Translations under genes and position numbers: made by a program
NCBI GenBank assembly: GCA_046758705.1
Contig: JBHIAT010000003.1
Coordinates: 1 to 55,702, forward strand
Origin: Candidatus Bipolaricaulia bacterium
GTDB lineage: Bacteria > Bipolaricaulota > Bipolaricaulia > JBHIAT01
DNA length: 55,702 bases
Direction of reading: 5' to 3'
Shown: positions 41,149 through 44,299 of the stretch, in pieces
Numbering within the stretch: position 1 is the stretch's first letter
Layout: every line of letters starts with the position of its first letter
Notes under the pieces: generated by a model
Seen by the model: only the letters and a program-made list of their open reading frames with translations
The model's database searches: none
Told to the model about the DNA's origin: nothing

Positions 41149-41228
41149 ACACCCTTGAAGCAGTTCGGCGGAGCAAAGCCGAGGAAGTCCTGGAGGCCTG
41201 TCGGTCGTTGATCAGTGAACCGTCATGA
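41145..41228 (+). other. 27-codon translationally coupled ORF (possible HEPN first-helix remnant)
   Basis: The GTG at 41145 overlaps the MNT2 stop (GTGA). The ORF encodes VNTLEAVRRSKAEEVLEACRSLISEPS, and its TGA overlaps the cas10 ATG (ATGA). Coding status is uncertain. Confidence 0.25.
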
Positions 41229-44200
41229 GCGGCGAACTGGAGAAGCTCAAGGAATACCGCGATCAAATCCTGCTGACCGAGGTGGGAGTGTGGCTACACC
41301 TGCTGGGAAAGTTTTCCAGTCAGTTTTTCAAAGACCAAGTAGCAGGTAAAGGCAAGAATTACAAAGAATTCTACAAGAATATCGACACATCATTAAAGGA
41401 ACTTTACGATAATTCCTGGCCAGAAAAACATTGGCATATTCCTTCCCTTAAAGGAGTACAATGGAGTCAAAGCCTGGCACAATTCAGCAAACAACACGAT
41501 AATCAGCAATTCGCTGAGGGGAAAAGCCCTGTGACCATCGCTGTCGATGCTCACGGTCGTGGTTCTGGAACGGATAAGAGCGTACAGGCTAAAGATATTT
41601 ATCTACAGCAAGCACTTCCTATCTATCTTGCTACAGCTTTTGGGCACGAGTCGGTGATCGATAGTGATAAACTGGACGGGCAGAGAGACGAGCTGTATGA
41701 GCTTGTTAGAGAAAACCTTGAACAAATCAAAAGCAAGCTCGAAAGTGAAGAAGAGATCAATTGGAGAAAGACGATTTCAAAATTAATCGATCGACTGTGC
41801 AAAGATTTCGCTAGCACCGTAGGTGACACGCGTCGTCCAATCAATGACGTCTCGTTGTGGGATCAGACTTCCTCAACCGTTGCATTTTTCAAACCCTCTC
41901 TTGCAAAGAACATTCTGCTAGGTGACTGGAAAAATCCACTTGAAACCAAATATAAATGGCGCTTCCTTCGTATTGCAGTGGATGGATTGAGCTATTGGAG
42001 CGCAGCAAATCGCATCGGGGATTTACGTGCTCGTCAAGATCTCGTAACTCAAGCCCTCGATAACATCAAAGGATTGCTGGAGATCACCTATCCAATCGGG
42101 GCTGAAGTCTATCGAGATGAGACCGGAAGTCTCTTCTTGCTCCCTGACGAACCCGAGAATCTTTTAGATCTTACCACCGACGGGCTATCCCTGGAACAAC
42201 ACATTCAAGCAAAGGTTATAGAGGCAACACAGGGTGAGATCACGGCGAAAATCGATCTTGATGATTGTGCCACGCGCAACGTTTTCCGAGCGGGTTATTG
42301 GCTATCACAGCCTTTGCCTCCCGTAAGCGCCGATTCAGCCAAGCTCAAAGAGTGGTGGAGTCAGGAACATGAAGAAGAGCATCAGCTATTATGCAGCATC
42401 TGTGCTCTTCGACCTCAAGGCTATGGTGGCAGCAATGCTAATGAGACGGCAATGGCCCTGGAACGGGATATGTGCTGCGTGTGCATGAACCGTATGGCTG
42501 GGCAGGCAGAGCGTTGGCGGGAAGCAGGTTTAGATCGAACCATCTGGATCGATGAGGCGAGTGACATCAACGGACGGGTTGCCTTGATCGTGGGAGAGTT
42601 TGATTTGGAGGATTGGCTGAATGGGATTTATACCTCATCCATGACGATCCCCGATCCTGGAAACCTCGATGGAAATGAGACAGGCAATGATTTCAGCCAA
42701 CTGCTCACAGAATTGCGCCAAGGGCTTAAGAACGATGATTCCCTGGTTGACTCTGATACTTTTCCGATCATCAACACCTTGCTGGATCCGAAGGTCAAGG
42801 GAGATCTAGGGAGTTTTAAGAGGCTTTACGAATTTCTGGTCGAAGAAGAGGATCTTTCTGAAGCAGGAAGAGAACTTGAAAATTCTGAAAAATTAGCCTT
42901 GGCCCTGGTGCGTAAACCCCCTTCCTTTGCCCGCATCCGCCGCCTGTGGACGACGACTCAGCGCTTCTGGGAAGAGGTTCGTGACGAGAGCATTTCCGCC
43001 AGCGTCGGGCGATGCTCACGTCTAGAGTTCTCGGCGAACTATTCACCGGTGAAAGATCAGTTTTTACAGCAACATCAGGCCTATGAACTAGTGATGAACG
43101 GCCATCGTCTGCCCGTCTTTTGTAAGGACAGAAACTCCTTGCGATTTCTCACTATTGAGCGTTTGGATTACGCCCTCAAACAACTGAACTGGAACGATAT
43201 CCAAGAGATGATCGCTCAACTCAAAAGACCTGATAACAGCTTCGAACTGGAAACGCCAAGCGAGTACGGTGGAAAACGACGAGAGATCGGATCGTTGAGC
43301 CATATCCAAGTGACTGGACAAACCGAATATCAACCTCACATCCCCATCCTCGCCGAACCGCGCACCTTCATGGCGCTGGTACCCGCGGATAAAGCGCTCG
43401 ACATCGCCCAGGCGATCAAGACGAAATACGAACGCGAAATGGGCAAGGTTCACAACAGGTTGCCGCTCCATCTGGGTGCGGTCTTCTTCCCCCGCAAGCA
43501 GCCGTTGCGCGCCGTGCTGGAAGCGGGCCGGAGGATGCTCACGATAGTCCAGTCAGATGAAATGTGCGTGTGGAAATTGTCCGAAAATGCACAGGTTCAG
43601 GATGGCAATTGCATTCTTCACTTCGATAACGGCGTCGAATGGGAGATCTCAGTTCAGATGGGCGACGAAAAGACTGAAGATAAGTGGTATCCCTACTTCT
43701 TTATTAAAGAAGGCGGCGAAAACGCTCCAGAACCTAAAAATCGAGGATTGGCCTTTGAGGGTATCCGACCGATACGCCATGACAAAACAGAATCCTGCTG
43801 GCTTGTTCACGTCAAGAAGCTTTGTCAAGGCGATCAAGTCTATATCACCTCGTCCCTCTTCGACTTCGAGTGGCTCGACACTAACGCCCGACGATTCGAC
43901 GTCTCCTACGCCGAGGGGAAACGGCGCGCCCCGGACAAGCGCAACCGGCCCTATCTGCTCGACGATCTAGAGCGTTTCGCGTGCTTGTGGAAACTCATCT
44001 ACAAGAACCTGACCACCTCACAAGTTAAGCACCTCGACGGGCTCATCGAGGCCAAACGCCAGGAATGGGGAGAAGGAACCGGTCAACAGAAATATTCGGA
44101 GACGTTCGAGCAATTCGTCTGCGATGCGCTCAAGACCGCTGGCTGGAAGAAGAACCCCAAAGATTGGGATTCAAAGGAATGGGAGATGCTCTATCGCGCC

Positions 44201-44299
44201 ACACTCACCGGTGAGCTTCACGACGTGCTCGAACTGTACATGGAAATCCTCAAATGCAAACCTAAGCGAGATCGACAGGAAGAGAAGGAAAAATCATGA
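41225..44299 (+). CDS. cas10: Cas10/Cmr2-like large subunit with apparently degenerate HD and GGDD motifs
   Basis: 1024 aa. Palm1-like LRIAVDGLSYW, a Zn finger CSICALRP...CCVCMNR, Palm2 entry RVALIVGEFDLEDW, and PSFARIRRLW..FW (the SPSR-like helix). Where GGDD is expected the sequence is ILAEPRTFMALVPAD. The N-terminus has WLHLLGKF where HD-type Cas10s have LLHDIGKF. Confidence 0.8.
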   Translation: MSGELEKLKEYRDQILLTEVGVWLHLLGKFSSQFFKDQVAGKGKNYKEFYKNIDTSLKELYDNSWPEKHWHIPSLKGVQWSQSLAQFSKQHDNQQFAEGKSPVTIAVDAHGRGSGTDKSVQAKDIYLQQALPIYLATAFGHESVIDSDKLDGQRDELYELVRENLEQIKSKLESEEEINWRKTISKLIDRLCKDFASTVGDTRRPINDVSLWDQTSSTVAFFKPSLAKNILLGDWKNPLETKYKWRFLRIAVDGLSYWSAANRIGDLRARQDLVTQALDNIKGLLEITYPIGAEVYRDETGSLFLLPDEPENLLDLTTDGLSLEQHIQAKVIEATQGEITAKIDLDDCATRNVFRAGYWLSQPLPPVSADSAKLKEWWSQEHEEEHQLLCSICALRPQGYGGSNANETAMALERDMCCVCMNRMAGQAERWREAGLDRTIWIDEASDINGRVALIVGEFDLEDWLNGIYTSSMTIPDPGNLDGNETGNDFSQLLTELRQGLKNDDSLVDSDTFPIINTLLDPKVKGDLGSFKRLYEFLVEEEDLSEAGRELENSEKLALALVRKPPSFARIRRLWTTTQRFWEEVRDESISASVGRCSRLEFSANYSPVKDQFLQQHQAYELVMNGHRLPVFCKDRNSLRFLTIERLDYALKQLNWNDIQEMIAQLKRPDNSFELETPSEYGGKRREIGSLSHIQVTGQTEYQPHIPILAEPRTFMALVPADKALDIAQAIKTKYEREMGKVHNRLPLHLGAVFFPRKQPLRAVLEAGRRMLTIVQSDEMCVWKLSENAQVQDGNCILHFDNGVEWEISVQMGDEKTEDKWYPYFFIKEGGENAPEPKNRGLAFEGIRPIRHDKTESCWLVHVKKLCQGDQVYITSSLFDFEWLDTNARRFDVSYAEGKRRAPDKRNRPYLLDDLERFACLWKLIYKNLTTSQVKHLDGLIEAKRQEWGEGTGQQKYSETFEQFVCDALKTAGWKKNPKDWDSKEWEMLYRATLTGELHDVLELYMEILKCKPKRDRQEEKEKS

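Follow-up and report, generated by a model that had tools for sequence, protein, structure and literature searches.

A subtype III-C Cas10c with replaced catalytic motifs and an operon-embedded ATPase and probable Toprim pair as its candidate output in a Candidatus Bipolaricaulia bacterium

The large subunit of the subtype III-C CRISPR-Cas systems was described as an 'inactivated Cas10 (Csx11 subfamily)' already by Makarova et al. in 2011 (PMC3150331), and in later reviews the subtype is defined by the inactivation of its cyclase (PMC8730458; PMC12669027). Hoikkala et al. (2024) reported that the cyclase sites were absent from all of the III-C loci, that an HD domain could be recognised in only half of them and that the subtype had no known effectors (PMC11229360). 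In PARIS, another defence system, the Toprim nuclease AriB is kept restrained by an ABC ATPase, AriA, until the latter releases it (PMC11464382). In this study we analysed a III-C operon that is located in 55,702 nucleotides (nt) of the contig JBHIAT010000003.1 from a Candidatus Bipolaricaulia bacterium (assembly GCA_046758705.1), a stretch that we refer to as the window, and in particular its gene cas10c (csx11; 41225..44299, + strand), which encodes an intact large subunit of 1024 residues from ATG to TGA. A sequence-only reading of this gene had proposed that both catalytic signatures of Cas10 were lost and that the complex could probably only bind and cut RNA. The best explanation of the whole locus, to which we assign a probability of about 55%, is that of a III-C Cas10c that makes no cyclic oligoadenylate (cOA), with an ATPase and Toprim pair embedded in the same operon as the most likely extra output.

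The product of the open reading frame (ORF) at 41225-44299 is almost certainly Cas10c (Csx11), the large subunit of a Cmr-like effector of subtype III-C. It matched the Csx11 model TIGR02682 of NCBIfam from position 2 to position 1007 of 1007 (497 bits against a cut-off of 249, E 1e-148) as well as the PADLOC model 'Cas10c, CAS-III-C effector large subunit' (E 1.4e-188), which, together with the canonical order of the surrounding genes, confirmed the subtype that the sequence-only reading had assigned. The Pfam match to Palm2 was below the threshold (21 bits against 27). An AlphaFold2 model that was built from the family alignment had a pLDDT of 91 and a pTM of 0.92 and displayed the multi-domain fold of the Cas10 superfamily, i.e., an N-terminal HD-type domain, Palm1, a zinc finger, Palm2 and a C-terminal helical domain; its best Foldseek matches in the PDB were all Cas10, Csm1 or Cmr2 chains (E down to 3e-7, approximately 10-12% identity), and there was no III-C structure among them. 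A profile-profile comparison (hhalign) with an alignment of 42 Csm1 sequences covered residues 179-777 (probability 96.9%, E 1.7e-10) and paired D253 of Palm1 with the Asp of the Csm1 GDLSGIQ motif, the linker motif RPINDVSLWDQ with the Csm1 PDVSLFDH and the four cysteines of the zinc finger (C390, C393, C417 and C420; 42392..42484, + strand), which are invariant in 62 relatives, with the zinc-finger cysteines of Csm1. Two segments without a Csm1 counterpart, both modelled with high confidence, were also observed: residues ~460-700 (nt ~42602-43324), which form a helical and beta-sheet insertion between strand beta1 and the first helix of Palm2, and residues ~780-885 (nt ~43562-43879), which form a beta-rich domain preceding the C-terminal helical domain. 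The nearest sequence that was found shared 59% identity with Cas10c, while in the species-representative genomes, in which 308 Csx11 relatives were detected (Cyanobacteriota, Chloroflexota, Bacillota, Bacteroidota, Thermotogota, methanogens and others), the identity was 40% or less. A phmmer search with the single Cas10c sequence gave zero matches among the PDB sequences, and the family profile was needed for the alignment with Cmr2. Such extreme divergence from the other Cas10 proteins, combined with an inactivated cyclase (here an EPRT hairpin), is what characterises Csx11. Cas10c is an ordinary member of a known family and not a new kind of protein, and because the loss of the catalytic sites is the known definition of Cas10c and a published hallmark of III-C, this finding alone is ordinary.

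The replacement of both catalytic motifs was found using several alignments. No GGDD, GGDE, SGDD, GGD or GDD string occurred anywhere in the 1024 residues in a string search. The profile of 62 homologues paired AEPRTFMALVPADKAL with AGGDDVLAILPVDKAL of the Pyrococcus furiosus Cmr2 (PDB 3w2v/4w8y; E 6e-4), and the profile-profile alignment with Csm1 set E711-P712-R713-T714 (codons at 43355..43366, + strand) on G-G-D-D. At this hairpin, GGDD was present in 0 of the 62 database relatives and in 0 of the 69 full-length genomic relatives from L001-L083; an SGDD string in one locus (L059) was considered as an exception and was rejected, as it sits in the C-terminal beta domain, and the hairpin of that protein reads AEPRN. 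At the HD position, hhalign of the N-terminal domains alone (probability 91.9%) paired H25 with H15 and L26 with D16 of Csm1 (codons at 41297..41302, + strand), which means that the His was kept and the Asp was lost. An 'HD' dipeptide at residues 91-92 corresponds to the second His motif of Csm1 and not to the catalytic dyad; H91 is conserved in the family and D92 is not. Both substitutions, EPRT for GGDD and HL for HD, are shared by the whole clade of this Cas10c. The by-eye alignment from which the two losses had originally been proposed was therefore correct and not shifted, and all of the strings quoted for it are present in the protein (WLHLLGKF at residue 23, LRIAVDGLSYW at 248, CSICALRP at 390, CCVCMNR at 417, RVALIVGEFD at 451, PSFARIRRLW at 566 and PILAEPRTFMALVPAD at 707). 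With the cyclase motif lost, Cas10c very probably makes no cOA, and signalling by cOA, which the sequence-only reading had denied, is very unlikely to occur. No CARF or SAVED gene was found among the window ORFs that were scanned (Pfam on 38 ORFs, NCBIfam and PADLOC on subsets), as had also been stated before. In the absence of both cOA and a CARF or SAVED protein, the output must be direct or protein-mediated.

Four genes of the operon had gone unflagged in the sequence-only reading, namely an ATPase and a probable Toprim protein between cmr1 and cmr6 and two nucleotidyltransferases between cmr6 and cas10c; these embedded genes contradict the view that nothing else in the locus could give an output. 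The ABC-type ATPase (AriA/OLD/AbiL-like; 36857..38194, + strand; Pfam AAA_21 and AAA_15) likely starts with the ATG at 36857, which lies 4 nt over the cmr1 stop. In PADLOC it matched AriA (E 2.5e-18, model positions 1-302 of 304), AbiLi, PDC-M38A (E 2e-16) and OLD, and against the PDB it matched PtuA, OLD, Rad50 and RecF at its N-terminus only. Its Walker A motif (GPNNSGKT), its signature (FGDGxRHAFK) and its Walker B motif (LWEDPE) are invariant or near-invariant. The 251-residue partner (38195..38950, + strand) had no family match above the threshold, and we regard it, with moderate confidence, as a probable OLD-like Toprim protein with a helical domain. Its AlphaFold2 model (pLDDT 95) found its best Foldseek match in the C-terminal Toprim region of the Burkholderia pseudomallei OLD 6nk8 (E 0.04, probability 0.89, TM 0.41-0.49), and residues E9, G10, D67, D69, H126, D143 and K195 are invariant or near-invariant. 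Among 41 homologues of the partner, 12 matched the Pfam OLD-like_TOPRIM, all of them weakly (best E 2e-4), eight matched DUF3226, 20 matched PADLOC PDC-M38B and 17 matched HEC-01B, while none matched DUF4435 or AriB in Pfam and PADLOC. Searches of the PDB sequences with the single partner sequence, a 41-sequence profile and a 71-sequence profile gave nothing significant.

The distribution of this pair was studied in 83 Csx11 loci that were sampled by tblastn (L001-L083) and in 168 fetched loci in all using a profile hidden Markov model. The ATPase was found at the same relative position in 11 of the 83 loci; the profile detected it in 24 of the 168, 23 of which were distinct, giving 24 distinct loci when the window is included. 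The partner adjoined the ATPase in 24/24 loci and never occurred without it among the fetched loci. The pair always lay beside cmr6, and between cmr1 and cmr6 in all loci save L086, in which the partner comes first and the contig begins without reaching cmr1; on every contig that is long enough, Csx11 was located downstream of the pair. When genomes were scanned with the ATPase alignment irrespective of context, the same arrangement emerged: the Walker A pattern is generic in such a scan, which left eight usable full-length relatives among the matches listed, and 8/8 of these flank cmr6, as well as cmr1 where the contig extends upstream. An exact look-up of the partner homologues gave the same architecture in five of five cases; both sets are among the 24 loci. 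With 99 clusters at 50% identity in a set of 1.84 billion representatives, the partner belongs to a tiny family, and the hosts of the pair belong to the Cyanobacteriota, Chloroflexota, Bacteroidota, Bacillota, Vulcanimicrobiota and the ANME/methanogen archaea. Among the loci and the matches listed, the pair was found solely in III-C operons. On the Csx11 tree the ATPase-bearing loci are scattered, in the HD and the HD-less classes alike.

Further analysis of the co-inheritance was based on Mantel tests on 16 loci. The ATPase co-diverged with Cmr1 (r 0.82), with Cmr6 (r 0.68) and with its Toprim partner (r 0.51), each with a p of 5e-4, and the same p was obtained for Cas10c and Cmr4 (r 0.57). 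Co-divergence of the ATPase with Cas10c had been expected; the correlation was 0.05 and not significant, which argues against tight co-evolution with Cas10c, and that with Cmr4 was not significant either (r 0.17). Cmr1 and Cmr6 co-diverge with each other, and the cross-block correlations were weak or absent. The III-C operon therefore behaves as two blocks, cmr1-ATPase-Toprim-cmr6 and cas10c-cmr4-cmr5-cmr3, which suggests recombination between the operon halves. The pair is an old, stably inherited part of the cmr1-cmr6 block and not a recent random insertion. No description of it was found in the literature on Csx11/III-C and on the OLD/Toprim systems. Two clusters listed previously (PMC6546367), one of them unexplained and labelled 'C3a152, Type III-C specific' (Cylst_6373) and the other labelled 'nucleotidyl trans.', may correspond to the genes described here.

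Based on these observations, a working model of the system can be proposed. Cas6 would make CRISPR RNAs (crRNAs) with a AUUGAAAC tag; the tag would be held by Cas10c and Cmr3, and the guide would be lined by Cmr4, Cmr5, Cmr6 and Cmr1. A complementary transcript would be bound and then cut at 6-nt steps by Cmr4, for which the sequence-only reading had rightly noted that the Asp of the GRVDN motif (D29) is retained. Cas10c would act as a structural (scaffold) subunit or as a sensor, and no cOA would be made. The extra output would most likely come from the embedded ABC ATPase and the OLD-like Toprim protein; this pair is confined to III-C operons and is co-inherited with Cmr1 and Cmr6. By analogy with the PARIS and OLD systems, the ATPase may restrain the Toprim nuclease until the binding of the target RNA licenses it, and the contact would probably be made via the Cmr1/Cmr6 end of the complex. 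That the pair is functionally coupled to the complex at all is a tentative proposal, for which we see somewhat less than an even chance.

Several points weigh against this model. The pair occurs in only ~13% of the sampled III-C loci (11/83) and therefore cannot be the general output of III-C, and since it is present in both the HD-retaining and the HD-less classes, it is not a specific compensation for the loss of HD. The ATPase does not co-diverge with Cas10c or with Cmr4, and its correlation with Cmr1 and Cmr6 could arise from mere physical linkage. ATPase and Toprim pairs are free-standing elsewhere (PADLOC PDC-M38, HEC-01 and PARIS), so the co-location could mean co-regulation only. The assignment of the partner to Toprim is itself weak, as judged by the Foldseek E-value, the sub-threshold Pfam matches and the lack of a PDB sequence match, and both the coupling and the function of the pair are inferred.

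The alternative with the most weight is that the system acts on RNA alone. According to this explanation, Cmr4 binds and cuts, or silences, transcripts, Cas10c is a pure scaffold, and the pair and the nucleotidyltransferases are passengers from independent defence or toxin-antitoxin systems. It would agree with the fact that ~87% of the sampled III-C loci consist of the six core genes alone, with conserved accessory genes absent, and with a survey in which no III-C effector was reported (PMC11229360). The resemblance of the ATPase and its partner to the free-standing candidate defence pairs PDC-M38 and HEC-01, the commonness of MNT/HEPN pairs as mobile toxin-antitoxin modules and the missing co-divergence between the ATPase and Cas10c are also in its favour. 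A random passenger, however, should turn up at various sites, some of them outside III-C, whereas this ATPase-partner subfamily was seen solely in III-C operons, in 24/24 loci from bacterial and archaeal phyla and, save for L086, at the cmr1-cmr6 site. Moreover, the genes of the pair overlap their neighbours translationally, and the ATPase co-diverges with Cmr1 and Cmr6. We consider this alternative unlikely, even though it carries about half of the weight of the model in which the pair provides the output.

Of the earlier proposal that the complex probably does no more than bind and cut RNA, the part that concerns cOA stood, while the loss of the N-terminal nuclease proved to be less secure. 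Among the 62 relatives, position 26 is occupied by M in 46, L in nine, D in five and N in two, and the family as a whole falls into two sharply separated N-terminal classes, approximately half HD and half HD-less. In the HD class, the HD dyad is followed by 'RCHxxAHxEKE' or 'RCDxxDSGxDKG', while the HD-less class, to which this Cas10c belongs, has the pattern 'WLH[M/L]xGK ... H91 ... D108-A-H110-G-R-G-S114-G-x-[E/D]-K118'. The corresponding segment here, DAHGRGSGTDK (D108-K118; codons at 41546..41578, + strand), aligned with SRADNYSSSERG of Csm1 and paired H110 with D97; together, H25, H91 and H110 map to the metal-site residues H15, H67/68 and D97 of Csm1. D108, H110, S114 and K118 are conserved in 52-55 of the 55 members of the HM/HL class, and D108 is present in no HD-class member. 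In the genomic relatives the loss of D26 covaries with the gain of D108 in the conserved DAHGRGSGxEKG motif, and D108 was found in 33/35 proteins of the HM/HL/HI class and in 0/32 of the HD class; loss of nuclease activity is therefore not proven. Because no part of the N-terminal domain is missing and its conservation is no lower than that of the remaining protein (pairwise identity of 41% compared to 40% for the whole protein, and 36% for the domain in the HD class), its features indicate remodelling under selection rather than decay, either as a nuclease or as a docking surface.

These findings provide the basis for a second alternative, in which the HD-less domain is still a metal-dependent nuclease, with H25, H91, D108 and H110 replacing the ligands H, D, H(H) and D, and target-activated cleavage of DNA or RNA persists. 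Besides the covariation and the conservation of the domain, it is favoured by the retention of H25, H91, H110, S114 and K118, each of which is kept in 51-55 of the 55 HM/HL-class members. The N-terminal domain, which tends to be deleted in other Cas10 lineages that have given up the nuclease, is complete here. However, the HD Asp is the key metal ligand in the characterised Cas10 HD nucleases and is replaced by a hydrophobic residue here, a predicted helix carries D108 and H110 at a distance of two residues, so that they may face different sides, and the conservation can be explained equally well by a binding or docking surface. A rewired nuclease as the main explanation of the locus is improbable, and Cas10c probably has no canonical HD DNase. 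A combined view, in which a subset of the III-C systems has a messenger-free output through a split OLD-type pair that is licensed via Cmr1/Cmr6 and, additionally, an N-terminal metal site rewired to H25/H91/D108/H110 that may be functional, is possible but unlikely.

The Palm2 domain is the best-conserved region of Cas10c, with a mean pairwise identity of 58% compared to 40% for the whole protein, which might point to altered chemistry in the palm, i.e., to a residual acidic pair of D460 in strand beta1 and E/D711 in the hairpin that serves in another nucleotidyl transfer or in nucleotide binding. Residue 711 is indeed E or D in 49 of the 55 HM-class members, and P712 is near-invariant (55/55 in the HM class and 4/5 in the HD class). 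In strand beta1 (RVALIVGEFDLE; 42575..42610, + strand), D460 pairs with the first catalytic Asp of the Csm1 'LKADVDN', and this position is D or E in 44/55 HM-class members. In the global hhalign, the insertion of ~240 residues had dragged beta1 to a wrong strand, and that alignment was rejected and redone with the insertion (473-559) excised; the resulting pairing of D460 has a probability of only 51% (E 1.5e-4). Moreover, the HD class does not conserve D460, every relative has lost the two Asp and the two Gly of GGDD, the SGIQ nucleotide-binding motif of Palm1 is also absent, and the locus lacks a sensor gene for any product. The conservation is explained equally well by contacts with Cmr3 and the crRNA tag, and we read it as mainly structural; altered palm chemistry is highly improbable. 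That the missing canonical dyads are a sign of a decaying locus is effectively refuted by the intact frame of 1024 codons with its confident fold, by the fixation of the same substitutions across hundreds of relatives, by the many positions that are invariant across the 62 relatives and by an intact operon in which the genes are coupled and which has cas6 and a neighbouring array of 17 repeats.

The two nucleotidyltransferase genes occupy a second insertion between cmr6 and cas10c. The first encodes an MNT-type nucleotidyltransferase (NT1; 40308..40649, + strand; Pfam Polbeta and NTP_transf_2), which scored 28 bits against a cut-off of 60 with the NCBIfam MntA model. The second encodes another nucleotidyltransferase-domain protein of 170 residues (NT2; 40636..41148, + strand; Pfam NTP_transf_2 with E 5e-10 and PADLOC PDC-S09 with E 3e-12). 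Homologues of NT1 were found in approximately ten loci, either between cmr6 and cas10c or otherwise adjoining the III-C cassette, and a HEPN gene often follows them, while those of NT2 were found in L054 and L065. An MNT-HEPN pair is often present in related III-C loci, at the same site (L001 and L164) or just upstream of cmr1 (L002). No HEPN partner was found in the window, in which the gene after NT1 is the second nucleotidyltransferase.

The operon of the window has the order cas6-cmr1-[ATPase-Toprim]-cmr6-[NT1-NT2]-cas10c-cmr4-cmr5-cmr3 and is tightly packed; the four extra genes overlap their neighbours by 4, 0, 4, 4 and 14 nt, and there is a single gap of 76 nt before cas10c. It begins with cas6, which encodes the crRNA-processing endoribonuclease (34941..35714, + strand; Pfam Cas_Cas6_C with E 5.5e-30 and Cas6_I-A; NCBIfam cas6 with E 2.5e-41). 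The cmr1-like RAMP of the Cas7 family (35724..36860, + strand) matched Pfam RAMPs (E 4.5e-21) and the NCBIfam Cmr1 domain (E 3e-17) and is syntenic in 62 Csx11 loci. The cmr6-like RAMP of the same family (38947..40311, + strand) matched Pfam RAMPs (E 2.4e-13) and, below the cut-off, NCBIfam Cmr6 (E 2.4e-8), and is syntenic in 70 loci. Downstream of cas10c lies cmr4 (44296..45294, + strand), the Cas7 backbone subunit and predicted target-RNA nuclease, which passed the NCBIfam Cmr4 model (E 1.6e-34, 120 bits against a cut-off of 87). It is followed by a cmr5-like small subunit (Cas11) of 153 residues (45287..45748, + strand), which was assigned by position with no family match and has homologues in the same place in 64 Csx11 loci, and by a cmr3-like RAMP of the Cas5 family (45745..46608, + strand; Pfam RAMPs with E 3e-5), which is syntenic in 64 loci. 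The canonical III-C order, cmr1-cmr6-cas10-cmr4-cmr5-cmr3, is thus found here with two insertions, and it was observed in all of the loci whose contig spans the cassette (>60 of 83) except L028, in which cas10c precedes cmr1.

Upstream of the operon, a CRISPR array with 17 identical repeats of 30 nt that end with ATTGAAAC (32806..33887, read on the + strand of the cas genes) consists of 17 exact copies, with 0 expected by chance. The genes cas4, cas1 and cas2 are located at 30691-32487 (+), and a complete type I-B system, with cas8b, cas7, cas5 and an HD-fused cas3, occupies 49660-55080 (+), followed by a second CRISPR array (55407-55699), the repeat of which differs from that of the first array at 2/30 positions. 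The III-C module probably borrows its adaptation genes and arrays from the type I-B system. III-C cassettes commonly adjoin other CRISPR types; in L001, I-B and III-C occur together, and L002, a metagenome-assembled genome of Dethiobacter, has I-D, III-C and a III-A Csm1 with HD and GGDD domains ('fully active'). Such mixed loci are consistent with III-C using shared arrays beside other effectors. Three genes that follow cmr3 at 46768-49655 (+), in the space between the III-C and I-B modules, encode a 465-residue TPR protein with weak DUF6398 and sigma-70 region-4-like matches, a 117-residue protein with a SEC-C motif and TPR, and a 273-residue SWIM zinc-finger protein that matched PADLOC PDC-S62 (E 2.6e-19) and the N-terminus of DpdE. 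They were considered as a III-E-like TPR effector set and were rejected, as no homologue was present in the 83 other Csx11 loci that were searched. Two overlapping ORFs of 99 and 131 residues between the first array and cas6 (33944-34563, -) form a candidate toxin-antitoxin-like pair, and two ORFs of 363 and 787 residues upstream of cas4 (26166-29494, +) had no Pfam or NCBIfam match beyond a negligible metalloprotease-like one. The first 26 kb of the window consist of housekeeping genes, and a cluster of three tRNAs (18327-18783, -) as well as a 1719-residue protein with subtilase and GEVED domains (4491-9650, +) apparently belong to an ordinary chromosomal context.

Taken together, the locus is best filed as a III-C variant with a strictly III-C-associated ATPase and Toprim-like pair and with MNT nucleotidyltransferases. 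III-C has been recognised for longer than any other type III subtype with a dead cyclase, and the published surveys list no effector for it. If the model is true, the pair would be a candidate for the missing effector in part of the subtype and would represent a new genomic context for the OLD-family nucleases, while the covarying switch of the N-terminal motif leads one to expect a nuclease that is rewired or else a docking surface that is conserved. Either outcome, if it proves to be true, would reveal how type III systems manage without second messengers.

When compared with the known systems, the locus is closest to Csx11/Cas10c of III-C, formerly the MTH326-like module, with which it shares the full-length family match, the Cas10 domain order, the zinc finger, the inactivated hairpin and the flanking cmr genes; it differs from the other members in that its operon contains two interruptions, the ATPase-Toprim pair and the two nucleotidyltransferases, and in that its Cas10c, a member of the HD-less class, is divergent at the identities given above. 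With the active Cas10 proteins, Csm1 of III-A and Cmr2 of III-B, it has in common the fold, the linker motif, the Palm1 Asp, the zinc finger and the beta-hairpin, helix and strand of Palm2, but it has EPRT in place of GGDD and HL in place of HD, lacks SGIQ, contains the extra segments and is only ~10-12% identical. The embedded pair resembles PARIS (PMC11464382) and the OLD family (PMC10568477) in the succession of an ABC ATPase and a small protein with a putative Toprim-type E...DxD, in the full-length fit of the ATPase to AriA and in the best structural match of the partner, which is an OLD Toprim region. Unlike in PARIS, the partner has no AriB or DUF4435 match and is related to candidate families only (PDC-M38B, HEC-01B, the weak OLD-like_TOPRIM and DUF3226), and unlike the OLD systems, the pair is located inside a CRISPR effector operon, a context that is listed for no OLD class. 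The subtypes III-E, III-F, III-G, III-H as well as III-I, in which the cyclase is inactivated or lost (PMC12669027), are similar in having neither cOA signalling nor CARF or SAVED proteins. However, III-F, III-G and III-H are built from other Cas10 lineages and gene sets than the III-C system described here, and while III-E relies on a fused Cas7-11 and a TPR-CHAT protease, this system has retained the multi-subunit Cmr-like architecture.

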